Both the position numbers and the translations under genes were made by a program. 64,000 nt of DNA from contig CM000150.2 of assembly GCA_000004695.1 (NCBI GenBank), forward strand, positions 4,859,597-4,923,596, in the 5' to 3' direction. Shown piece by piece: positions 3,063 to 64,000 of the stretch (position 1 is its first letter; each line of letters starts with the position of its first letter). The notes under the pieces were generated by a model. The model did no database searches. It was given only the letters and a program-made list of their open reading frames with translations, and was not told where the DNA came from. Source of the DNA: Dictyostelium discoideum (Eukaryota).

Positions 3063-6000
3063 TATCATAATCAAATTTTAGCTCCAGGTACATGCCAATA
3101 TTCACATCCAGAATATTCAGAAACATCATGTTGTACAAATGGTCAAACACTTGTTTTATTATCAAACATGGTAATGGGATCTGCAGTATTTGCACGTTGT
3201 CCAGCATGTTTATTTAATGTATGGGATTTGTGGTGTGCATCATCATGTTCACCATATCAACAATCATTTATGGTACCAACAAGTATCGATAGTAAAACAG
3301 GACAAATCTTAAGCGTTGATTTCGTCATTCATCCCGATTACGCTTGGGGTTTATATAATTCATGTAGTGGTGTAAATTCAGATGGTGCACCACCTTTTGG
3401 TACAATTTTTCATACACCTCAAGATTTTTTTAGTGGTATCTTTGCACTTAATCCAGCATTTTCAATCAATTGGGTTTTCAATGAAACAGGTTATATAAGT
3501 CCAACTGCTCCATGCGCTGAATCTTGTTCATGTGATCAATGTGGTGATGCTTGTGGTCCACCACCTACTGTTGGTGAAATTGGTTTATTTAATAATTCTT
3601 TACCACAAACTTATTTGTTTAATCATGAGTAAGTAGTATTTTTTTTTAAAAAAAAAAAAAAAAATCAAATGATTATCATTTTTAAATACTAAATTTAATT
3701 TTTTTTTTATTTATTTAATTAGAATTCCATTTTTATCAGTTTGGATGATTTGGACATTTATTATGTTTACATTAGTTTTAACATATGGTACTAGTATGGG
3801 ATTAGTTTTATTTGGAAATGTAAAGTTTTTCGATTCAACTAAAGTAAAAGTAATAGCATCATTAGTTTTATCAATTTCATTTATTAGTGCAATTTTAATT
3901 CCATTCATTTCTGGTAAAGTACCACTTCATGATAGTTCATGTCAATGGAAAATGCCATCCGATCAACTTTGGAATTGTTCATTAGCTTTGGGTGTTGGAA
4001 TTTATGAGCTTATTACTTTTATTTTCTTATTTGTCATCTCAATTGTTATCATTGTTCTTTATCATATTGGTTCAAATAATCGTCCAATTCCAGGTTCCTC
4101 TTCAAATGCCTCAGTTGTATATGATGCATTAATTTCTTCCAATAGTAGTAATAATGATAATAGTAATAGCAATAACAATGAACAACAACAACAACAACCA
4201 TCAACAATTATTCAAAGATTCTTTTATTGGTATGGTCATAAAGTTGCATCAAAACCACTTATTGTAATTTTAATTTGTATTATAATAACAGCAGGTTTAG
4301 GTATTGGTATTATAAAATTAGAAATTGAACAAGATCCAGTAAAATTATGGGTTGCACCAGATAGTAGAGCAGCATTAGATAAAACTTATTTCGATAATAA
4401 TTTTGGACCATTTTATCGTGTTGAACAAATTATTATAACACCAAAGAATCAAACTAAATATCCAACAGTTATAGAATATGATTTATTATTGGAATTATTT
4501 GAAATCGAATTATCATTAATGAGTTTAGAGGCAGAATATGAAGGAGAATTGATTACATTGGATTCACTTTGTTTCAAACCAACAAAACGTGGTTGTTTAA
4601 TTGAAAGTACATCTGGTTTATGGCAAAGAAATATTAGTAAACTTAATTATACCCAATCAGAGGAAGGTGTTTTAACCTATTATGAAAATTGTCAATCGAG
4701 CTTACTTCAACCAGATTGTATGGATTCAGTGGGAGCACCAGTTCAACCAAGAGTGGTCTTGGGTGGTTGGGAGAATAATAATTCCTCTGCTGCATCTGCT
4801 TTTGTTGTTACCTTCCTTTTAAATAATCCAACCGATATGGTAAATACCGCCATGGCATGGGAACAAGTTTGGTTGGATCATATCTCTGCCATTGCTGCCA
4901 CTTCTGAAATTTTCGATATCACATATAGTGCCGAGCGTTCAGTTCAAGATGAGTTATCACGTGAAGGTAATGCCGATATTCCAACTATTCTAATCTCTTA
5001 TTTCGTTATGTTCTTCTATGTCTCCCTTTCATTGGGTAGTTACTATCCATTCCCAACTCGTTTCCTCTCATTATTTGTCCGTTCGCGTTTTGCACTTGGT
5101 TTTTGTGGTATCATCATTGTAGCTGCCTCCATCGTCATTAGTGTTGGTGTTTGTAGTATGGCAAATTTAAAGGCAACCTTAATCATTTCCGAAGTAATTC
5201 CATTCCTTGTATTAGCAATTGGTGTGGATAATATTTTCATCATTGTTAATACCTTTGAATCATTACATGTCGTTCGTTATGATCCACATACTCGTGCTGC
5301 TATCCTTCCAACCTCTGAAGATTCATTAGCTCGTACCCTCGCAAAAGTTGGTCCATCAATTGCTTTAGCATCACTCAGCGAATCATTGGCTTTCCTATTG
5401 GGTTCATTAACAAAAATGCCAGCAGTTCAAGCATTCTCTTACTATGCAGCATTGGCAATTTTCGTTGACTTTTTATTACAGGTTAGTGCATTCTCTGCCC
5501 TATTGGTTTTGGATTCTAAACGTGCCTCCTCAAGACGTATCGATTGTTTACCATGTATTGCATTGGAGGATGGTGATAACTCTGATATGGAAGATGATGA
5601 TGATGAAGAAAATGAAAAATTACCATTTGCACGTGCCGACATTAATGCAAACTTTAAAAATTCTCAACCAACCTATTCCACTTCATCATCACCAAAGAAA
5701 ACTACCCTCCTTCAAGTTGTCTTCAAAAAATTCTATGCTCCCTTTTTATTACATCCAATCACAAAGATGTTGGTTATCATTTTCTTTGTTGGTTTATTGT
5801 TGACTGGTATAAACTTTGCCTTCCAAGTCTCGATTGGTTTAGATCAACGTGTTGCCTTACCAAGTAATTCTTATCTTCAAGGTTATTTCAATAATATGGC
5901 CAATCTTTTGGAGGTAGGTCCACCATTTTATATCGTTATCAAAGGTGATTACAATTATACCGATTTTGAATCACAAAATAAACTTTGTACAATGGGTGGT

Positions 6001-7017
6001 TGTGATAAAGATTCAATTGTCAATGTATTCAATAATGCACCATTCATCAATAAAGGTATTTCAAGTTGGTTGGATGATTATATTAGTTTTGCTCAAGCCC
6101 AAGGTTCTTGTTGTCTCAAATATCCAAATGGTAGCATTTGTTACAATGGTGCCGACCCTTCCTGTGCACCATGTTTCTCAAATAATGCACAAGGTCGTCC
6201 AGATCCACAATCATTCATACAATATTTACCATTCTTTTTGAATGTATCAAATACTGCCAGTTGTCCATTGGCTGGTTTGGCTTACACAAGTGATGCTCAT
6301 ATCGTCAATGGCACTATTGTTGCCTCAAGATTCGATGGTTATCATACAACTCTTAGAACTCAAGATGATTATATCAATGCAGTTCAAACCGCTTATTATT
6401 TGGCCGATAATTCCGATCTCGATGTAGAGGTTTATTCAATCATTTATGTTTACTTTGATCAATATCTAACAATCAAGAGTGTAGCAATAATGGATATCCT
6501 TTTGGCATTGGGTGGTGTATTTATTGTTTGTCTCATTTTACTATTGAATCCATTGGTTTCTTTCTTGGTTGTAATTTCCGTTGGTATGATTTGTGTCGAT
6601 TTATTAGGTATCATGGCATTATGGAACATCTCTTTGAATGCAGTTTCCGTTGTAAACGTTGTTATGGCCATTGGTATTGGTATCGAGTTTTGTGTTCACA
6701 TTGCTTCAACCTTTATCAATGCTCCAAAACATTTCTCAAGAGATCAAAAAGCAAAATATGCCGTCACTGAGATGGGTAGTTCCATCATTAGTGGTATCTT
6801 TATCACAAAATTATTGGGTGTCGTGGTTTTAGGTTTCTCAACTTCAGAAATTTTCACTGTTTATTACTTTAGAATGTATCTCAGTATAGTTTTCTTGGGT
6901 GGTTTACATGGTTTAGTTTTCTTACCAGTATTATTATCTTTATTTGGAACTGATACCCTTCAATTAGATCGTCTTTGTAAATCTAAAAAAAATAGTTATT
7001 CACTTAATGATGAATAA
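2787..7017 (+). CDS. Niemann-Pick C1-like sterol transporter (patched/RND family with sterol-sensing domain), 3 exons
   Basis: Exons 2787..2954, 3081..3628 and 3723..7017 are joined in frame by GTAAGT...TTTTAG introns (phase 0, then phase 2). Exon 1 encodes a signal peptide. Exons 1-2 encode the Cys-rich NPC1 N-terminal domain (CSMNG, CQYSHPEYSETSCC, CPAC, CDQCGDACGPP). Exon 3 encodes about 1090 aa with multiple TM helices and a sterol-sensing/patched core (GVDNIFIIV, two large luminal loops with conserved Cys clusters). Total is about 1330 aa. Confidence 0.85.
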
Positions 7018-7202
7018 AAAAAAAAAAGTAAAAAAAAAAATAGTTATTCACTTAATGATGAATAAATAAAAAAAAGTAAAAAAAAAAAAAAAATAATAAA
7101 GATTTGTATAGAATAATTTTGAAAAAAAAAGATCATCAAAAAAAATCAAGATTTAATTTTTAATTTTATTTCTCTCAAGGTCAAATTTCATATTTTTTAT
7201 TT

Positions 7203-7233
<31 letters not shown>

Positions 7234-7353
7234 GTTATTTTCAAATTTTTGAAAAAAAAAAAAAAAACCACCGTGTTATAATTTTTAATTTTTTATTTTT
7301 TATTTTTTTTTAATTTTTTTTTTGATTTGTCAGTGTCATATAATGATGTAAAA

Positions 7354-12972
<5,619 letters not shown>

Positions 12973-51328: not shown

Positions 51329-51700
51329 CACAGCAAAGAAAAATGCACCTTTAAAGCCAATTTCAAGCAAATACAATTTAAATTTGCTTTAAATTGGCTT
51401 TAAATTTGCTTTTTAAAAAGGTAATTTTAAAGATATTTTTAAGGTCATTTAAAATTACATTAAAAATGACCTTTTAAATTTATTATAAAGCGGTTTTTAA
51501 ATAATGTTTTAATCACTTTATAATAAATTTAAAAAAGTTATTTTTAATGTAATTTAAAATTACTTATCAATCCTTTTTTAAGCTTTTATTAATTATATTT
51601 TTTAAAATACATTTTAAATGCATTTTAAATACATTTCAAATCAATTTTTACACTATTTATTTCAAATTTATTAAAAAAAAAAAAAAAAAATAAGAAAATA
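51329..51700 (+). repeat. CACTA/EnSpm-like transposon terminus, copy A: TIR CACAGCAAAGAAAAATGCACCTTTAAAGC followed by degenerate TTTAAA-rich subterminal repeats of about 10 bp
   Basis: The same 30-bp terminus recurs at 53270 (same orientation) and inverted at 53875..53904. The subterminal block is made of tttaaa(g/t)g..-type repeats. Confidence 0.55.
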
Positions 51701-52360
51701 AAAAAAAAAAAAAAAATTAAGAAAATTATAAAAAAAAAAATTAAAAAGATAACCAAATTAATTTTAATTCTTTATTTATTTGTTTCAGTGGCAATTGAAT
51801 TCTATTATTATTATTTTTATTAATTAATAATAAATAAGTGTTTCAGTTGCCTTGGGTTTTATATTATTTTATTTTAAATTTTACTTCTCATTTCAAAAAG
51901 CGAAAAATATCAAAAAAAAAAAAAAAAAAAAATTTAATTATTTGTTTTGCATATTTATATTATAAGTATAAACATACATATAAAAAAAGATTTTTTATTT
52001 TTTATTTTTTATAATTAATAAACAATTAACGAGTGCACAGGTATATTATTGCATTAGTGTAGTTTTACAATAAATTGGGCAGATTTTATAGTTTTTTTTT
52101 TTAATATTTTAAAAAGAAAAAGGTATAGACAGGGTCATAGGTTCCCCGTCATTTTTTGAAAATGGGGTATATCCCTCTAAATATAAAATTCTAAGTACTA
52201 AATCATATATCTACTTGCTATAATGCTAAAATTTGAATAAAATGAAAAAAAAAAAAAAAAAAAAAAACGTAAAAACTCGAGGAAAAAAAAAAAAAAAAAA
52301 TATTATTTTTAATTTCCAGCCAGCAAACAAAATGAATTTAAATAACATATCATGCATTAA

Positions 52361-53269
52361 TTGCAGAGAAAAATTAAAGAATTTAAAAATATTATTATTC
52401 ATTATATTATGCATAAAAATATATGTCCATTTTGTCTTGCATATTACCGTTCTTATAAACAATTTTATGATGTAAATGGACATTCCAACACCAAAAAATG
52501 TAAAAATGAACAAAATAAAATTATTACAAATAATCAAAAAAGAGATAGCTTTTATAAAAAATTAATGGATATTACTGGTGAAAAAATAAAATATCCAACA
52601 AATGATCCAGATGACCCATGTAAACATTTATGTAACCAAAACCAAGATGAAATTTTTTATCAAGAAAATAATGAAAATAATGAAAATAATCAAACAATTG
52701 ATAATGAAGAAAATCATGATATAATTGGGTTGGTACATAGTGAGGATGAAAACAATGAAATTAGAATAGATGAAAATGAAGCAAACATTAATAATGAAAA
52801 TAATGAAAATAATGAAAATGAAAATGCTCAAAACGAACCAATAAATAATAATCTAAATAATAATTTAGATAATGAAAAATCAAAAAAAAAATTAAATGAA
52901 ACTGAAATTGAATTTTTAATGTTGGGAATTGAAAACTCAATAAGTTTAAAGCTACTTGAAAAATTTAAAAGTTTTATTGACAAAAATAAAACCAATTTAA
53001 ATCAAATAAGATACACACCTCAATATATGGATAAATTATTTATGGAAGATTTTCAAATAAAAGGAGAAACATTTATAAATAAAAATTATGATCACTCAAT
53101 TTTTTATTTTGAAATTAAAAAAGTATTAGAAACTTTATTAAATAAAAAGCAATTTTTTGAAAGAATAGATTTTGATACAGATTTTGAAACTGGAATTTAT
53201 ACAAATTATAAAAGTGGTCAACAATTTAAAGATTTAAAAAATAAAAATAAAAATAAAATTGTTTTACTT
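52361..53269 (+). pseudogene. Transposon-associated ORF (Cys-rich N-terminus, N/E-rich middle) truncated by the TIR-bounded insertion at 53270
   Basis: ORF ...ISCINCREKLKN / CPFCLAYYRSYKQFYDVNGHSNTKKC...; a frameshift links it to the 52233 ORF. Its reading frame runs straight into the TIR CACAGC at 53270, where the last residues are encoded by TIR sequence. Confidence 0.4.
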
Positions 53270-53904
53270 CACAGCAAAGAAAAATGCACCTTTAAAGCAA
53301 ATTTAAAGAAAAGTTGATTTAAATTGGATTTAAATTGAATTTAAAGCCGCGTTTAAAAAATTCATTTTTAAGGTAATTTTTAAGGTAATTTTTAAGATAT
53401 TTAAAAATGCCTTTAAAATTTGCTTTAAAATAAATTTTTAAGCAATTTTAAAGGTGATTTTAAAGGTGATTTTAAAGGTGATTTTTAAGGTAATTTTTAA
53501 GATAATTTTTAAGATATTTAAAAATACCTTTAAAATTTATTTTAAATTAATTTTAAATAGGATTTAAAGTAGATTTAAAGTAGATTTAAAGTGAATTTAA
53601 ATTTCCTTTAAACATAAATTTAAGGTTTTTAAAAAAAAAGATCTAATTTTAGAACAAAAAAATGGGGATAAAATATTCTATCATTTTTAAATTTTCATCA
53701 AAGCAATCAAATGGTGTAATGGTTGATGAGACTACCCTTTGATAGAGGGTCGGGGGATCGAATCCCTTTTGGTAATTTTTGAAAAATTAAAAAAAAAAAA
53801 TTTTAAAAATTTATCCGTTAAATAACGGCTTCGAACTCAGGGACTTTAAAGCAAATTTAAATTTAATTTAAAGCGAATTTAAAGGTGGTTTTTTCTTCGC
53901 TGTG
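53270..53904. mobile_element. 635-bp non-autonomous (MITE-like) element bounded by about 30-bp imperfect terminal inverted repeats (CACAGCAAAGAAAAATGCACCTTTAAAG ... CTTTAAAGGTGGTTTTTTCTTCGCTGTG), carrying subterminal TTTAAA repeats and a tRNA-like gene
   Basis: Left and right termini are reverse complements (24 of 28 positions). The interior is (ggtgattttaaa)3, (gtagatttaaa)3 and similar. It lies between two transposase-like ORFs. Confidence 0.55.
53703..53776 (+). tRNA. tRNA-like gene or pseudogene (candidate anticodon GAU, Ile-like) with an imperfect cloverleaf and a downstream extra-B-box-like motif
   Basis: D-loop AATGGTT with GG; anticodon arm ACCCT-TTGATAG-AGGGT (5-bp stem, U33, GAU, A37); T-arm/B-box GGGGGATCGAATCCC. 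A second B-box-like GGCTTCGAACTC lies about 55 bp downstream (53830), as is typical of dictyostelid tRNA genes with ex-B boxes. However, the variable region is only 1 nt, and the D stem (GTGT/AGAC) and acceptor stem (AATCAAA/TTTGGTA) have mismatches, so it may be degenerate. Confidence 0.35.
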
Positions 53905-53909
53905 TTAGA

Positions 53910-54722
53910 ATATTCACTGATAGTATGCAGTGTCAAAACAAGAAAGATTATACTATAATGCTGGATATAGAAAATTATATTGGAAATGAATTTAAAAATA
54001 ATAAATTATTATTATTTGTAGTACCAAATGATTGGTTACTTAATTTTCATCAAACAATTAGGGCATTGTTTTCATCTTTTATTGGTAATGGGTTTAATTT
54101 AATTATTGAAAATGAACAAATAGATGTTGTACCGTTTGGACTGACAATGGATATTCCAGAATTTAGAGCATCGTGTAAACTTAATGGACATAATTCAAAT
54201 GAATATGCATGTCACACATGTGACAAACCAAGAGATGGTTTATTTATTTGCAAATCAGGTACATTAAGAAAACAAGAAGATATTACAAATTTTCACTCCA
54301 CCAAACCAAATTATGCTGAACTAAATGCTGATATAGAATTAAAAAAAGTATGGGAAAAAAAAGCAAAAGATATTGGTATCAAAGGTGTGGACAGAGGGTG
54401 GGTCGAACCTTTGTCCATTAATTATTTAAAAACACAACCAGACATTTTACATAATATTTTATTAGGTGTCGCACAAAGATGTTTAAATTACATTTTTGAT
54501 AAATATAAAAATAAAATTGCAAATTTTTTAAATAATTTAAAAAATGCAAAAATAATAGATAACAAACCAAAACCATCAATTTCACTATTTGCAAATAAAA
54601 CAAGGAAAGGAAGAGAGAATAGATCAATATTATATTACTTTTTAATATCAATTAAAAATCAAATATCAAATGATGATTTTTTAATTATGGAACAATTAGT
54701 AACTATATGTTTTAAATTTTAA
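53910..54722 (+). pseudogene. EnSpm/CACTA TNP2-like transposase fragment
   Basis: ...FRASCKLNGHNSNEYACHTCDKPRDGLF... and KGVDRGWVEPLSINYLKTQPDILHNILLGVAQRCLNYIF resemble the plant/fungal tnp2 transposase core (D[VI]MH[IV]EKN...). The ORF has no ATG until 53925 and begins in frame immediately outside the right TIR at 53904. Confidence 0.45.
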
Positions 54723-55530: not shown

Positions 55531-56246
55531 TAGTTTCTTAATTATTTTAAATTGAATTTAAGAAATTAAATAGTGTGATTTTGTAAAATATGTTTTTTAT
55601 ATATATATATTTTTTTTCCCTATACAAAACTATATAAAATAAAACTCTGTTATTTTTTTTATATTATTTTAAATTCCATATAAACAATGTTATATGTCCC
55701 ATGCCAAAATTACCATATTAATTTCAGCAGCCATATTAATTTTGGCATGGGACTTAGGTCTGCCAAAATTACCTTATTAATTTCAGCAGCCATATTAATT
55801 TCAGCATGTACATAGCTGCCAAAATTAATATGGTAATTTTGGCATAGAAAAAAAAAAAGTCAAAGTCATTTAATTAATAATCATCTCAAATATAAACAAA
55901 ATTTTAGTACTAAAATTAATATTATTATTATTTTTATTTTAATAATTATAATAATAAAAAAAAAAAAAAAAATTTTCATATTATTTTATTTATATCTTTT
56001 ATTTATTTTTATCTTTTTATTTTTATTATTAATTTTATAATTTATTTTCATTTCTTTTTTTTTTAGTTGATATATATTTTTTTATTATTCATTTATTTCT
56101 AAGGCTAACAAAAAAAAAAAATTAAAAATAAAAAAAAAAAATAAAATAAAAAAAAAAAAAAAAAAATTAAAATAATTTTTTTTTTTTAATTTTTTTTTTT
56201 TAATTATCTACTCTTCTACTTACTCTTTTGTTACTAACAGATGAAG

Positions 56247-56449
56247 TGTTGTAGGGAATTTTCCATAAAATTTCACTACAGTAGCGTAGTGAATTTTATT
56301 ATTTAATTTCACTACAGTAGCGTAGTGAAAAAAAAAAATCACTGACCTTAAATTTTTTTTTTTTTCAAAAAACAAATAAAGTTTATTAAATTGAAATTTT
56401 ATTTTTTGTTTTAATTATTATTTTATTTATTTTTATTATAATTATTGTT

Positions 56450-56482
<33 letters not shown>

Positions 56483-59400
56483 CAATTTTTTTTTTTTAAA
56501 TTTTTTTCAATTTTTATTTGTTTATTAAATTGTAATTTTATTTTTTGTTTTAATTATTATTTTATTTATTATTATTGTTAATTTTTTTTTTTTTTCAATT
56601 TTTTTTTTTTTAATTTATTTTTATTAATTTATTTTTATTAACTCCCTGAGTTGTTCAATTGCTTGATTTACCATATCACTGTAAACACTGCACACAATTG
56701 AATTTTTTCTAGCTTTGTTACCTCTGGTGCATTTGATGTTTTTGCATTTTCCTTTGTATACAAAAAAGTCCAAATATAATTCGTTTTCTATTACAGTTTT
56801 TACACAATGTTGGTGAAATTGTTTTGATTTTAATTCTAATGCTTCTAACATCATATTTGAATTTTTAACGATTAAAGCATCACCACTATTTACATATAGT
56901 ACTTTGGCTGCTTTTTCGAGGAATTTAGTCAAATTTTCCTCTGAATCTAACTATTCTTCATTGCCATATTCAATGGCTAAATTTCTTAAGAGTTTTATCG
57001 AATCTATTAATTCTTCGATCATTCTTTTTTTTTGAAATTTTTTTTTATTTTGTTTTTTCAATTTTTTTTTTTTATTTTGTTTTTTCAATTTTTTTTAAGT
57101 TTTATTTTTTTTTATTTTTTTTTATTTTTTTTAACAAATGTAATTTTTTTTTATTTTTTTCAATTTTTTTTTTTTTTAATTTTTAATTTTTTTTTTTTTT
57201 TTTAATTTTTTGTGTTGATTTGTGTTTTTTTTGTTTTTTTGATTTGGCCACTTGTTTTTATTTTCTAATTTCCCCATACCCCCTTCTATTAATTGCAACC
57301 AAATCAAGTTCTAATTTTTGTGTCCTTGTTGACTTTGTTTTTGCAACTTTTTTTGAAGGTATCACATTAACGATTTTTCCTATTGATGGTGATTTGGAAG
57401 GTGATTTAAATGGTGATTTAAATGGTGAATTGGAAGGTGATTTAAATGGTGAATTGGAAGGTGAAATGGATGGTGATTTGGAAGGTAATTTAAATGGTGA
57501 TTTGGAAGGTGATTTAAATGGTGATTTAAATGGTGAATTGGAAGGTGAAATGGATGTTGATTTGAGAGGTGATTTGGATGTTGATTTGAGAGGTGATTTG
57601 GATGGTTTAGAATGTGATTTTAAAGGAGGTTTATTAACAATTGGTATCTTATGAGGACGGCCTCTGAGACGTTTAACAGTTGTTACTATACCACTACCAG
57701 ATTGTGGTATAGTATATGATGGTATTATTTGCACTTGAGGTATTGGTGGTACTATTTCTTTTAAATTCATATCCTTTCTCAAACAATTCATTAAATTTGG
57801 CGCTGTTGGATTATTATTTAAAAATGGGAGTATTTCTTCTTGTTCCATTTCATTATTGAGTTTGTGTTGAAATGGATTATCGTTAATGATAGGTGGAATA
57901 TTTGATGGATTGTTAAGAGCATCTTCCAAAACCCTAAATGGATCATTTTGTGTTACCAATTGATGCAAGTTGAAATTGGATAAATCCTTACCAAGATTTT
58001 TAATAAACTGAACCAGAAATTCAATAACTTTCCCATCATTATTTAAATAAAGACCAGAAGTAAAAGAATCAATATCTTTTTGTATGTTTGGCGATGTTCT
58101 AAAAATATCAACTGTTGATTGTTTATAAAGAACCAACTTGTTACCTCCTACAAAACCAGAGTATAAACCTTTTTTTTGAAGGCTATTGATTCCATCTTCC
58201 AAAAATTCAAGTTTATAAAGTTGTTTAGTGTCTTCCTGTATTACCTTATGAATTTTACACAAAATCAATATTTTCTATTAGAATTAAATATAAAATTTGT
58301 TAATTATTACTGTTTCATATATTATTAATCTTTATGTTTTAATTACTTACATTATTTTTTTTAATTTCTAGAAAGAGTACAGTATCACCAACTTTCAATC
58401 CCTTTGGTGGTTTTGAATTCCATTGATTTTGGTAACTTGTGAGATTTTCAAGAATAATAGCTGTTATTTCTTCTTTTGAAACATCTGAAACACCAATTGA
58501 TTGAGAGTCTTGTTCTGATTGCACATTAATAAACAAAGGTACAATACCAACAGCTTGAGATGGTGTCATTTTAATTGTTCTTGTTTTTGTATTATTGTAA
58601 TCATACAAAGCTTGTTTTAATAGTTCAGAAAGAGACCTAGAAGTACCATCAAGAAAACTAAAATTTATTTATAAATGATTAATTAATAAACATATCGATA
58701 ATTTATATTGTTCAAAATATCATACTCTTGTTGTTTTAATTTTGAGATCCTCTCCTTGATAGTTCGATTCAATCTTTCTACCATACCTTGAGTTGTTGGT
58801 GTACGAGGAGCTCCATGTGCTGACTTGGAGCCTGGAAAAAGTTTTAGGAATTCTTTTTGGACTTTGTTTTTAAATTCACGTCCATTATCGCAGTGCCATA
58901 CTTTCACAGAGTTTTAATATAAAAGTTACAAAACATCATATAAAAAATGATTGATACCAAACCTTTTATTCTATTTCGTTGGCAAATGTCACACGTATCT
59001 ACTGCATCAGATACAAAAGAATACAATCCCATATTATAATATTTAGTCTTGTAGTTCCCATAGGTTGCATCTCTTCCTATATGACCTTTATGCATTTCTT
59101 CCCAGAGTGATACCATTCTATAATCATTAATTACTTCTAAACACACTTCTTTTGATATATTTCTATCTCCGCCACAATTCATGACTTTTTTTTCAATTCT
59201 AAATAATTTTTCTTTTCTGTTTCTGTTTTTTATTGGTCAGAATTTAAAAAATGATTGTGTTATGGTAAGGAAAAATATTTACTCATCATGTAAAAATTTA
59301 TAATTTTTATGTTTAGTATTTTCAAAATTATTATCTTCAATAAATTTTAAATAATTTATTCTGTTTCATTTTGGGGAAATGAAAATAAAAAAAAAAAAAA

Positions 59401-59692
59401 AAAAAAAAAAAGTTTTGTTGGGGAAAAAAAAAAAAAATTTTGGCGCAAAAAAAAAAAAAAAAAATAAAATAAAAAAAAAAAAAAATAAAATAAAAAAAAA
59501 AAAATAAAAAAACTTAAATAGAACTAATAATCAAATAAAAGATAATAATTTAATAAACTTTATTTGTTTTTTGAAAAAAAAAAAAATTTAGGGTCAGTGA
59601 TTTTTTTTTTTCACTACGCTACTGTAGTGAAATTAAATAATAAAATTCACTACGCTACTGTAGTGAAATTTTATTGAAAATTCCCTACAACA
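56247..59692 (-). mobile_element. Tdd-4/Ginger2-type DNA transposon (retroviral-integrase-like transposase, TIR-bounded), 3446 bp, with a 5-bp TSD TGAAG
   Basis: TIRs of 100 bp or more run TGTTGTAGGGAATTTTCCATAAAATTTCACTACAGTAGCGTAGTGA..., present at 56247.. and inverted at ..59692, each with an internal direct duplication of AATTTCACTACAGTAGCGTAGTGA. TGAAG lies at 56242..56246 and at 59693..59697. Size, TIRs, introns and the integrase gene match what is known of Dictyostelium Tdd-4 (3.8 kb, 5-bp TSD, integrase-like ORF). Confidence 0.7.
57258..59182 (-). CDS. Integrase-like transposase of the Tdd-4-like element (HHCC zinc finger + DDE core + C-terminal tail with SPxK repeats); interrupted by short introns
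   Basis: Zn finger H..GH.G...C..C (HKGHIGRDATYG...CDICQRNR). Core WHCDNGREFKN...HGAPRTPTTQGMVERLNRTIKE. C-terminal region ...GLKVGDTVLFLE. Tail (SPLKSTSK/SPFKSPSK)n. Junctions fit GT...AG introns (for example, donor GTATGA and acceptor TTTTAG between 58683 and 58608). Confidence 0.65.
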
Positions 59693-59697
59693 TGAAG

Positions 59698-60317
59698 TTT
59701 CGTTTGAAAATCTTTTGGTGAAAAAATCAGCATCAGATTGTAATTGATTAGCTCTTTTTTTACCCGTTTTGTTTTTGTTTGATTGAGTTGTGATTCCACC
59801 ATTATTGGAAGTTGTTGCAGCTTCATGTGTTGATCTAACTTCGGTGGTAGAGTGCTCGATTGCTTTTCCAACTAGGTCATCTGTTGATTTTCTTTTGGTT
59901 ATTTCGATATCCCTTTGCAATTTATTTTTACTTGAGAGTTTGGTGGCCTCTATTCTAGAAGTAGGCTCAGTATTGTAATAAGCCTTTATAATAGCAGAAT
60001 GATTATCTGCTTTATAATGATTACTGATGTGCTGTTGACACTGGTTTTGATTAATCATATGAGAGACACCATCTTCATCTTTGTTAAGCCTAACCTTCTC
60101 TATAATCTTCACTAAGTCTTTTGGGTACCAATTTTTTCTTTTTATCTTTATCAATATAAAACACTTCTTTAATAGTTGCCGTACCATATTCTACATTCTC
60201 AACAACATACTGTTTATCCAAAATGTTTTTCCAATAGCTTATATTTTGTCCACTCAATTTGGTATTATGAAATTTATAATCTATTTTAAATTTTACATCT
60301 TCGTCATATTTTTCCAA
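59698..60317 (-). pseudogene. Frameshifted ORFs of the host TIR element (unrecognised protein)
   Basis: ORFs 60090..60317 and 59698..60187 overlap with a frameshift. The downstream one reads through into the Tdd-4-like TIR, meaning the gene was disrupted by the insertion. Confidence 0.35.
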
Positions 60318-61119
60318 GAGTTTTTTTAATTTATTTTTATTATTTTTTCAATTTCTGTTGCAGAAAGTTGATTATTTAATTTATTGTCTTTACTGAAGAC
60401 CATTTTTTGGAACGAAAACTTTAAAAAAATAAAAAAATAAAAAAAAAAATACTTTTTTTTTTTAATTTTTTTTTTTATATTTTTTTTTTTATATTTTTTT
60501 TTTTTAAATTTTTTTTTTTAATTTTTTTTTTTTATTTTATTTTTTTAAAGTTTCGAACAATTATATATAAAAAAAAAGTAAAAGATATCCCTTCGGTTAA
60601 TTAAATAATAATAATAATAATAATAATAATATAATAATAATAATAATAATAATACTTATTTCGAAATGTTTAAACAATCATACAGTTTAAAATTAAATAA
60701 ATTGTTTTAAACCACCACTTTTTTTGAACACATGAAAATAAATAAGATATAAAAATAATAAGATAAAAAAAGATTTTTTTTTTTTTTTTTTTTTTATTTT
60801 ATAATTATTCTTGTCGTCAGTATTGTTACTATAATTAATCCCATGAGTTTTTTTTATTATTATTTTTAATTCTTTTATATTTGAGATGATTATTATTAAT
60901 TAAATGACTTTGAGTTTTTTTTTTTATATTTCTATGCCCAAAATTACCATATTAATTTCAGCAGCCATATTAATTTCAGCCTAAAATAGTTGGTCTGTGC
61001 ATGCCAAAATTAATATGGCTGCTGAAATTAATATGGTAATTCTAGCAGACATAAGTCCCATGCCAAAATTACCATATTAATTCCAGCAGCCATATTAATT
61101 TTGGCATGGGACAGTTATA

Positions 61120-61930
61120 CAGACCATTTTAAATAATTTCCATTTTTGTAAGTTCTAAAAACTTCCATTTTTGGAAATTTCCTTTTTAGAAATATCCTTA
61201 TAAGATAATATCCTTTTTAGAAATTTCCTTATATGGTAATTTCCTTTTTTAGAATTTTTTTTTCATTAAACTATTTTTTATGCGTCGATCAAACAAAGTT
61301 TGGGATTTTTTTTTTTTATAAAATTTTTTTTCTAAGTCAATTTTTTTTATAAAAATTTTATTTTTCTTCACAAAAACAACTTGGTTTATATAAAAAAAAT
61401 GTTTAAAGTGTTTTGAAACATTTTTTGTTTAAAAAAATAAAAATTTAAAAAAATTTCCTTTTTAAGAAAAAAAAAAAAAAAACTTGAAAGTTCGATTTCT
61501 TCATAGATCTCGTAAAGGCAAGCATTATTTTTTAAAAATTATTTTTTTTGAAAATACCGTATTTGGAGAGATCTCAGGAATGAGAACTTTCACTCGCGTT
61601 CTAAATCTATATTTCCGTAAGGAAATATTACTATATATGGTAATTTCTATAAAATGAAATTTCCTTTTTTGGAAATTTCCTTTTAAAGTAATATCCTTTT
61701 TAGGAAATTACTAAAAATAGATGTCCCTCTGTCGATATGTCTCCGAAAAATCTTAAAAATATCTCCGATACATCTCCAAAAAATCTCTGAAAAAATCTTG
61801 GAATTTCTCTATTTTGTGTACCCCCTACCTCCCTAGATCCCAGGTTGAAACCCAGGGAATGTAACCTTACACAAAACCCCAGGGATATAACCTTACACAA
61901 AACCCCAGGGATATAACCTTACACAATATA
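61120..61930. repeat. Tandem-repeat block, possibly LTR-like: (TTTCCTTTTTAGAAAT)-type units, then three copies of CCCCAGGGATATAACCTTACACAAAA
   Basis: Repeats seen directly. It lies immediately upstream of ORF 62058, which could be a gag-like ORF of a retroelement. Confidence 0.4.
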
Positions 61931-62830: not shown

Positions 62831-63305
62831 CAGTATGTTGGGCATCATACGGCCATTTGTCAATAGTAGGTCGGCGGTGGTGGTCATCAGCTGATGACAG
62901 AGGACCGTTTGCTCATAGTGGGCTTACTGGGTGACTTAGGCTACTATGTTGTAATTCTCTCGATTTGTCACTGTCATTCGGCTAGCATTTAGAGGTTAAC
63001 GTAATCAATATACATTGGTCACAAAAAACTTTTTAATGGTGGAAGGTAAATTTAATGTCACTAATAATCGGTCCGTCAAATTGGTTAGTTAGAGGGCATT
63101 AAGCGTGCTGAAAGCTATTAGAAAGGATCAATTGTGTTGATTCGACCTATCTCTAATATGTTAGTCGGGTATGTCCGGCAGTTTAGCGGCAGGGGGAACG
63201 GTGTACGCGCTGGGTTTCTGGCCACCGTTGCAGTAGCAGGTAAGATCTGCGTAATACTAGTACTTGTCCGAAAGATTATTCTAATTCCGCCTCACCTTTG
63301 TAAGA

Positions 63306-63635
63306 TTACCCGCTGAACTTAAGCATATCAGTAAGCGGAGGAAAAGAAACTAACTAGGATTCCGTCAGTAACGGCGAGTGAAGACGGAATAGCCCAAGGT
63401 TCAAACCTGGATCTCTTCGAGGTTAGGTGATGTGACCTATGGACTGATGGAGCCCGCTGTTGTGACTGCTAATTCCGTTTGGAATTTCGAGTCGTAGAAG
63501 GTGATAACCCTGTTCGCAGTATCACAACAGTTGGACTTTGCCATTAGCTCCACGAGTAGGAATGTCTGAAATTGCATTCTGAATGGGTGATAAGATTCAT
63601 CCAAGGCTAAATATATGTTAGGAGATCGATAGCAT

Positions 63636-63666
<31 letters not shown>

Positions 63667-63900
63667 TTTGAAAAAAGGTTTAAAAGTATTTGACACCGTT
63701 TATGTGGAAGCGTTTACTTGGACCCCGATTAATGACGTCGGTTTAGCTCTAATTCTTAGGTGGCCAAAGTAGAGTGTTACGTGCTGATCAAAAGGGAACG
63801 GACATTTGATTCATTGGTTATCGACGAGGAAGGGACTCTAAATCGGCCAGTTACTAACGGGTGAGATCTGATGTCTATAAAATGGAGGATGAGGCTTATC
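63306..63900 (+). rRNA. 5' end of large-subunit (26S/28S-type) rRNA gene, partial (runs into the N gap)
   Basis: TTACCCGCTGAACTTAAGCATATCAGTAAGCGGAGGAAAAGAAACTAAC is the universal eukaryotic LSU 5' terminus. Downstream ...AGTACCGTGAGGGAAAGGTGAAAAGAAC is the conserved D1-region motif. Confidence 0.9.
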
Positions 63901-64000
63901 NNNNNNNNNNNNNNNNNNNNNNNNNNNNNNNNNNNNNNNNNNNNNNNNNNNNNNNNNNNNNNNNNNNNNNNNNNNNNNNNNNNNNNNNNNNNNNNNNNNN
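63901..64000. other. Assembly gap (100 N)
   Basis: Run of N characters. Confidence 1.

Follow-up and report, generated by a model that had tools for sequence, protein, structure and literature searches.

The broken open reading frames inside a Dictyostelium thug-S element as the probable remnant of an integrase-type transposase gene

The DNA transposon thug-S was reportedly catalogued in Dictyostelium discoideum by Glockner et al. in 2001, and the thug family has since then been listed as a separate class in which no transposase was recognised. The same genome contains Tdd-4 and Tdd-5, which belong to the Ginger2/Tdd group and are integrase-type cut-and-paste elements with TG..CA ends and long terminal inverted repeats (TIRs); target duplications in this group measure 4-5 bp (PMC2836005, PMC10045372). 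A review of 2017 lists Thug as a separate family, and states of the Dictyostelium DNA transposons that their transposases do not significantly resemble any that are known (PMC5633606). MicroRNA (miRNA) loci have been placed in thug-S (PMC4894637, PMC6161686), Meier et al. having ascribed a miRNA pair to it, and the gene model DDB_G0270824 has been described as having both tdd-4 and thugS homology (PMC3386910). Here we analyse the locus of this gene model in a stretch of 64,000 nucleotides from AX4 chromosome 1 (GCA_000004695.1, contig CM000150.2, positions 4,859,597 to 4,923,596 of the forward strand), called the window below; positions are those of the window unless another locus is named. 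The locus holds two broken minus-strand open reading frames (ORFs). A sequence-only reading of the window, made without database searches, had taken them for a coding gene, split by an inner insertion, that might define the protein of a new element family. We find that they are very probably the decayed transposase gene of thug-S, which would itself be a non-autonomous, internally deleted derivative, about 2 kb long, of a larger thug DNA transposon.

The longer ORF (59633..60187, minus strand, 184 residues, MVRQLL...NWYPKDLVKIIEKVRLNKDEDGVSHMINQ...) and the shorter one (60090..60317, minus strand, 75 residues) overlap in different frames, and the thug-S gene at 59633-60317 is therefore frameshifted. 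Between 59633 and 60403 the minus strand has three overlapping stop-free stretches, of which the third, which is short and lies furthest upstream, starts at the ATG at 60403. This ATG (60403-60401), upstream of a second frameshift, is the true start codon. At its other end the 184-residue ORF reads past 59692 into the TIR of the inner element, a Tdd-4. One of the stop-free stretches is 166 codons long; a length of 163 codons was reached in none of 2000 shuffles of the region (maximum 148), and at the composition of the region the probability of 163 codons without a stop is about 5e-7.

A protein search with the frame-corrected ORF returned AX4 proteins, DDB_G0271172 at 94% identity among them, together with proteins from other assemblies of D. 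discoideum and D. cf. discoideum in which an N-terminus like that of the ORF continues into the integrase core domain rve (PF00665). The nature of the difference is evident from the DNA of one fuller locus, L002. From 61118 as far as 59932, L002 and the window have TIR, leader and N-terminal coding DNA in common (96.5% identity), with 97.9% identity over 383 bp at the 5' end of the element. L002 then contains about 1.14 kb that is absent from the window, whose tail subsequently resumes, the match being taken up again 58 nt beyond the missing segment. A parental sequence was reconstructed from L002 by removing a 631-bp insertion and by filling in the C-terminal ~50 residues, which lie past a Tdd-4, from DDB_G0271172 (P0001). 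The result is a single ORF of 591 residues, and in the protein alignment the window ORF corresponds to its residues 1-160 and 498-591, the middle being missing.

The catalytic core lies in the missing middle. The parent matches Pfam rve (PF00665) at 59.7 bits (cut-off 32.6; 3.6e-16) and rve_3 at 1.2e-9, its best match among solved structures is the integrase of prototype foamy virus (PFV; 7.8e-8), and hhalign aligns it with integrase cores at 99.8% probability. The catalytic residues are D186, D245 and E281, with a spacing of 35 between the second aspartate and the glutamate (D-35-E). The protein consists of an N-terminal region of about 170 residues, the rve core, a further domain and a basic C-terminal tail. 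An Integrase_H2C2 or HHCC domain was not found in the parent by Pfam, and hhalign to integrases that bear H2C2 aligns only residues 176-342. The window ORF itself lacks the catalytic core: Pfam run on the reconstructed ORF of 251 residues gave only sub-threshold matches to DUF424 and Phage_Y01A. Protein searches yielded no AX4 protein that has the thug core, and an exhaustive HMMER search listed no more than five representatives of the family before it reached generic integrases, at about 1e-16. DDB_G0290953 (P0003), on AX4 chromosome 5, has thug coding sequence (VEFNQSDEFGVLFNEVTIDKNDLKYKVNVEFREAE) from the far side of the 3' deletion breakpoint in thug-S, and AX4 therefore keeps part, at least, of a fuller thug copy.

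The host element of the ORFs occupies 55695-61113, or 1,968 bp when Tdd-4 is left out, and ends in TGTCCCATGCCA...TGGCATGGGACA, that is, in TGT..ACA termini. Four uninterrupted thug-S loci from assembly GCA_054883475.1 (L003, L006, L007 and L008) have copies of 1,955-2,001 bp that are 96.9-99.4% identical to the host. The four insertions in the window (whose locus is that of L007), L003, L006 and L008 differ from one another in their 6-bp target duplications; such duplications are perfect in five independent insertions, namely GTTATA, ATTAAC, GTTGCA and TATAGT, and TATGGA in a 3.8-kb relative at locus L004. The terminus TGTCCCATGCCA is identical in every copy examined, the L004 relative included. 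Because the window and L003 have the large deletion and two frameshifting lesions in common (Table 1), the copies descend from one element that was already defective and spread later; the ORF cannot have been required for this spread.

The L004 relative (4026-7822 of that locus) deserves separate mention. Its protein is 71% identical to that of the thug parent, and it lies in a gene-rich, non-repetitive region of GCA_054859355.1. Its 124-nt TIRs are 98% identical to each other and the TATGGA duplication is perfect; there is a frameshift in the N-terminal part of its coding sequence. The insertion seems to be young.

Judged by its miRNA hairpin and by gene annotation, the host element is very probably thug-S. 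Its sequence departs in nothing from the available descriptions of thug-S, being about 2 kb long, multicopy and provided with TIRs. In the right TIR, Rfam mir-7131 (RF03716) matches 61010-61098 at 96.2 bits (gathering score 74), the 119-nt hairpin at 60995-61113 folds with -77.8 kcal/mol (z = -14.7), and miRNA_can_D3-5p and miRNA_can_D3-3p both match, each with a single mismatch. The left TIR (55695-55850) has no mir-7131 match at E < 0.01, yet the same mature-miRNA-like words are present in it; a match at gathering level and a long perfect hairpin occur only in the right thug-S TIR. The gene annotation supplies the other line of evidence. The 184-residue ORF is the first exon of DDB_G0270824 (769 residues), which maps to 60187-59663 and 58274-57261 on the minus strand. 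Residues 1-175 of this model lie on the thug-S ORF, and residues 432-769 are the Tdd-4 ORF 58274-57261 at 100% identity. In DDB_G0270824 the remnant ORF of thug-S has been joined artificially to Tdd-4 integrase exons, and UniProt names the model 'Integrase catalytic domain-containing protein'. At least seven further AX4 gene models have a nearly identical ORF; the 90% cluster of DDB_G0271172 contains DDB_G0279895, DDB_G0282907, DDB_G0282703, DDB_G0271194, DDB_G0271154 and DDB_G0270824.

The inner element has arms of 269 nt (56247-56515 and 59424-59692) that are 84% complementary. The ORFs on its minus strand share 96-98% identity with the TDD4 integrase (XP_629668), TDD4 residues 52-149 being absent, and because of this identity the element is Tdd-4; the TDD4 and TDD5 integrase references were taken from the supplement of the Ginger paper. 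This copy has a 388-bp internal deletion of its own relative to another copy (junction 58908-58914), in which the region of the first catalytic aspartate was lost. The uninterrupted copies in L003, L006, L007 and L008 show the exact junction with a single TGAAG, in other words the empty site. L007 is the orthologous locus, with 99.7% identity over 5.4 kb including flanks. Since it has no Tdd-4, the insertion is a difference between strains, and its absence at the same locus in another D. discoideum assembly indicates recent movement of Tdd-4.

These results bear out much of what the sequence-only reading had seen. It had described frameshifted minus-strand ORFs that run into a Tdd-4-like TIR, which the ORF listing and the 269-nt arms confirm. 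It had also described a host element with TIRs whose gene is interrupted by Tdd-4, and here the ends, the duplications and the empty site agree. The further copies that it had considered possible do exist, the ORF being multicopy in AX4 and in other assemblies, and its own proviso that the ORFs might be confined to this locus does not apply. The proposal that an originally longer gene was split by the insertion is right in part. The split is real, but taking out the inner element lengthens the ORF by just 14 codons (...FSNETSSVSNKRVSRRVDN*, stop at 56202-56200), and the main loss was the earlier deletion of about 1.14 kb together with two frameshifts.

Table 1. Features of the thug-S locus in the window and the evidence for each.
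Feature	Position	Strand	Evidence
Target-site duplication GTTATA, left copy	55689..55694		read directly; repeated at 61114-61119
thug-S TIR, 3' end of gene, begins TGTCCCATGCCAAAATTACC; repeated ~39-nt CCAAAATTACCATATTAATTTCAGCAGCCATATTAATTT motifs in both orientations	55695..55850		inverted match to 60732-61113
thug-S ORF, last 14 codons and stop (SVSNKRVSRRVDN*), cut off by Tdd-4	56200..56246	-	reconstruction; matches C-terminus of DDB_G0271172 (P0001), L003, L006, L007, L008
Tdd-4, 3,446 bp, TG..CA termini, ~269-nt TIRs, duplication TGAAG (56242-56246, 59693-59697)	56247..59692	-	TIRs, protein identity, empty site
Transposase C-terminal tail, residues 498-577 of 591-residue parent	59693..59932	-	tblastn 97.5% over 80 aa; protein alignment
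Breakpoint of ~1.14-kb deletion, residues 161-497 lost (entire DDE core plus the following domain)	59932..59933		comparison with L002; same breakpoint in L003
N-terminal region, residues 100-160, including best-conserved block INQNQCQQxISNHYKADNHSAIIKAY	59933..60115	-	tblastn 98%; protein alignment
8-bp deletion (CAAAAATT in parent), frame-shifting	60123..60124		DNA alignment window/L003/L002; common to window and L003
N-terminal region, residues 33-84	60153..60308	-	tblastn 100%
A-run with 1-bp deletion, first frameshift	60343..60348		DNA alignment; common to window and L003
Original ORF start, MVFSKDNKLNNQLSAT (ATG 60403-60401)	60356..60403	-	tblastn
A+T-rich leader and subterminal region of thug-S	60404..60937	-	collinear at 96.5-99% with L002, L003, L006, L007, L008
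thug-S TIR, 5' end of gene; outer 119 nt (60995-61113) a near-perfect hairpin matching mir-7131 precursor	60938..61113		Rfam, folding
Target-site duplication GTTATA, right copy	61114..61119		read directly

On the basis of these observations, a history of the locus can be proposed. The ancestor of thug-S would have lost residues 161-497 through the deletion of about 1.14 kb and gained frameshifts of 1 bp and 8 bp. Having kept both long TIRs, it could still be moved by transposase from full-length copies, with 6-bp duplications, and such mobilisation in trans may have produced the spread of near-identical thug-S copies. Later, in the AX4 lineage, Tdd-4 inserted 14 codons ahead of the stop in the window copy, and gene prediction fused thug-S and Tdd-4 into DDB_G0270824. 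We infer that the element was mobilised in trans by the transposase of its parent because the ends of thug-S are conserved with those of the coding parent, at the identity over 383 bp given above, a pattern that usually marks non-autonomous derivatives dependent on transposase from elsewhere. The leftover ORF of 178 residues presumably has no function of its own.

Several points weigh against this reading. Among the copies examined, none is demonstrably an intact autonomous element: of those that bear the core, L002 is interrupted by the 631-bp element and by Tdd-4, L004 has N-terminal frameshifts, and L001 and L005 carry internal deletions. The name thug-S stands on indirect evidence, from the gene model and the miRNA. 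AlphaFold2, run on the family member P0002 with a family alignment of 8 sequences, gave a mean pLDDT (predicted local distance difference test) of 36, which is unusable. Finally, the 178-residue ORF is intact in several copies, which is compatible with some use of the truncated protein. Truncated products of P elements or of Ac act as regulators or inhibitors of transposition, and the truncated ORF might in the same manner be a working gene that regulates or inhibits the transposition of thug, its product keeping part of the end-binding region together with the basic tail; this would add a function to the origin proposed here without contradicting it. It is intact in DDB_G0271172, DDB_G0279895, DDB_G0282907, DDB_G0282703, L003, L006, L007 and L008, and relatives of 57-71% identity also keep its C-terminal motif, QLQSDA(D/E)FFTKRF. 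However, its first 18 residues are out of the frame of the parent, residues 1-99 are lacking, and the window copy has been shortened further by Tdd-4. Because the copies are so similar (96.9-99.4%), the intact ORFs are also uninformative on selection. We therefore consider a working gene unlikely.

The sequence-only reading had noted that the ORFs match none of the DDE, HHCC, BED or tnp2 signatures, and this is true of the retained sequence, in which Pfam finds nothing and profile comparison no H2C2 similarity. From this it had gone on to suggest a new kind of protein and a new element family, one lacking any known transposase. The retained sequence is without similarity to Pfam, PDB or H2C2 entries, its relatives are confined to D. 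discoideum and D. cf. discoideum, and the review cited at the outset could be read in the same sense. This interpretation is nevertheless very improbable, since fuller copies in other strains hold an in-frame rve core of the D,D-35-E type between the retained pieces, and the element is very probably thug-S, at a locus already annotated as DDB_G0270824. It is scarcely credible that the ORFs arose by chance in repeat DNA that is non-coding. The surrounding DNA is indeed A+T-rich and of low complexity, and the frames are broken, but none of the shuffles gave a frame as long and protein identity across diverged relatives is 57-81%; the earlier view that the ORFs are coding is thereby upheld. A decayed transposase gene thus remains the explanation that we prefer, and the question becomes what kind of transposase it was.

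The core of the parent was compared with labelled cores given in the IS481EU paper's supplement. The best labelled match of thug is IS481EU-2_TV (37% identity over 86 residues, 53.9 bits), all others scoring at most 39.7 bits, and the motifs IDxxSR, DNGxEN and NGKIERW are common to thug, IS481EU and IS3EU. In a small neighbour-joining tree of the cores (110 columns, 300 bootstraps, no GingerRoot sequence included), TDD4 and TDD5 join Ginger2, and thug joins a mixed IS481/IS481EU/IS3EU clade, the exact clade having 39% support. The sister of thug is solely IS481-like in 219 of the 300 bootstraps and TDD/Ginger2 in 25. The thug parent thus groups weakly with the IS481/IS481EU/IS3EU transposases, a placement that is suggestive rather than settled. 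The NCBIfam IS481 profile was tried as a classifier and rejected as non-discriminating: thug scores 83 bits, but Gypsy-type integrases score 107-116 bits.

The parent could instead belong, as a diverged form, to the Tdd-4/Tdd-5 (Ginger2/Tdd) group, with which it has in common the host genome, TG..CA termini, long TIRs, an rve core and one ORF of comparable size. Against this, the thug core is only 27-31% identical to those of TDD4 and TDD5 over about 110 residues, compared with 53.5% between TDD4 and TDD5. Both Tdd-4 and Tdd-5 possess the HHCC zinc-binding (H2C2) domain that thug is without, the thug duplications are 6 bp rather than 4-5 bp, and a TDD/Ginger2 sister appears in only the 25 bootstraps just mentioned. 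We regard such membership as distinctly unlikely. It is worth adding that DDB_G0290953, the AX4 gene with the thug fragment, adjoins DDB_G0290955, a gene annotated Tdd-5. Tdd-5 was suspected as the parent for that reason and was rejected, the TDD5 integrase being 31% identical to thug over 105 residues, as against the value of 53.5% to TDD4.

Comparison with the groups suggested by the tree gives a mixed picture. Like IS481EU and IS481, thug has TGT..ACA termini. IS481EU, however, duplicates 4, ~15 or ~25 bp of its target and has TIRs that are mostly <50 bp, where thug has 6 bp and TIRs from 124 nt (L004) to about 150-380 nt, and it is known only from parabasalids, where thug belongs to Dictyostelium. 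Duplications of 6 bp are found in most IS481 elements, and in IS3EU/GingerRoot they are combined, as in thug, with the absence of HHCC (PMC10045372, PMC6839031). The termini of IS3EU are TA..TA, unlike the TGT..ACA of thug, and in GingerRoot TG..CA termini are reported no more than occasionally (PMC10045372). The N-terminal region of thug has no counterpart in the IS481/IS481EU/IS3EU-GingerRoot group. Thug meets every defining feature of no named eukaryotic group. It may, as we tentatively suggest, represent an amoebozoan branch of the integrase-type DDE transposons that resemble IS481/IS3EU, characterised by 6-bp duplications, absence of HHCC, a lineage-specific N-terminal region, and TIR hairpins that have turned into microRNA precursors. 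If this is true, the IS481/IS3EU-like group would extend to Amoebozoa, and the missing autonomous partner of thug-S would be supplied.

The retained N-terminal region has no Pfam, PDB or H2C2 similarity, as noted, and even the exhaustive HMMER search found no relatives of it beyond D. discoideum and D. cf. discoideum. The TIRs of two thug subfamilies hold the conserved blocks TGTCCCATGCCAA and ATTAATTTCAGCAGCC. Given these blocks, and the position of the region upstream of the core, its most likely role would be recognition of the terminal repeats.

Other repeats occur in the window. Just to the right of thug-S, at 61848-61926, there are three tandem units of 26 bp (AAACCCCAGGGATATAACCTTACACAA). 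An element of ~635 bp that resembles a miniature inverted-repeat transposable element (MITE), with 51-nt TIRs (CACAGCAAAGAAAAA...TTTTTTCTTCGCTGTG), is present at 53270-53904 and at 51329-51932, and splits an ORF pair (52361-53317 and 53925-54722) that has no Pfam match. The same MITE-like element is found in L002 at 1321-1953, 7149-7779, 9146-9816 and 10957-11586, four copies within 13 kb, among them insertions into the ORF of the thug transposase and into a Tdd-4. Other transposons appear to be ready targets for it. At the end of the window (63287-64000), adjoining the transposon cluster, are the first ~610 nt of a large-subunit ribosomal RNA (rRNA) gene (Rfam, 293.7 bits), in agreement with the ribosomal DNA caps at Dictyostelium chromosome ends (PMC2665215). 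No tRNA genes were found in the window.

The element, its multicopy ORF and the gene model DDB_G0270824 are already known. The link of thug-S to integrase-type transposases appears to be unreported in the literature that was searched. It has come to light through recent assemblies from other strains, in which copies that bear the core are retained. For annotation, the result means that DDB_G0270824 and at least seven other AX4 "hypothetical protein" genes are transposon remnants, and that the two elements fused in DDB_G0270824 are unrelated. It further suggests a second integrase-like lineage in Dictyostelium, apart from Tdd-4/5. The general understanding of transposons is unchanged by this; it is a modest, specialist-level clarification of a small open point.

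With a plausible autonomous parent, thug-S also gains a plausible mechanism, integrase-type DDE cut-and-paste with 6-bp staggered cuts in the target. It would resemble other pairs of defective and complete elements. Ds, derived from Ac, and the deleted P elements have, like thug-S, kept the ends of the parent and lost its catalytic part. As with other non-autonomous derivatives, the copies of thug-S are near-identical and each has its own target duplication, and movement in trans would, here too, account for their spread.

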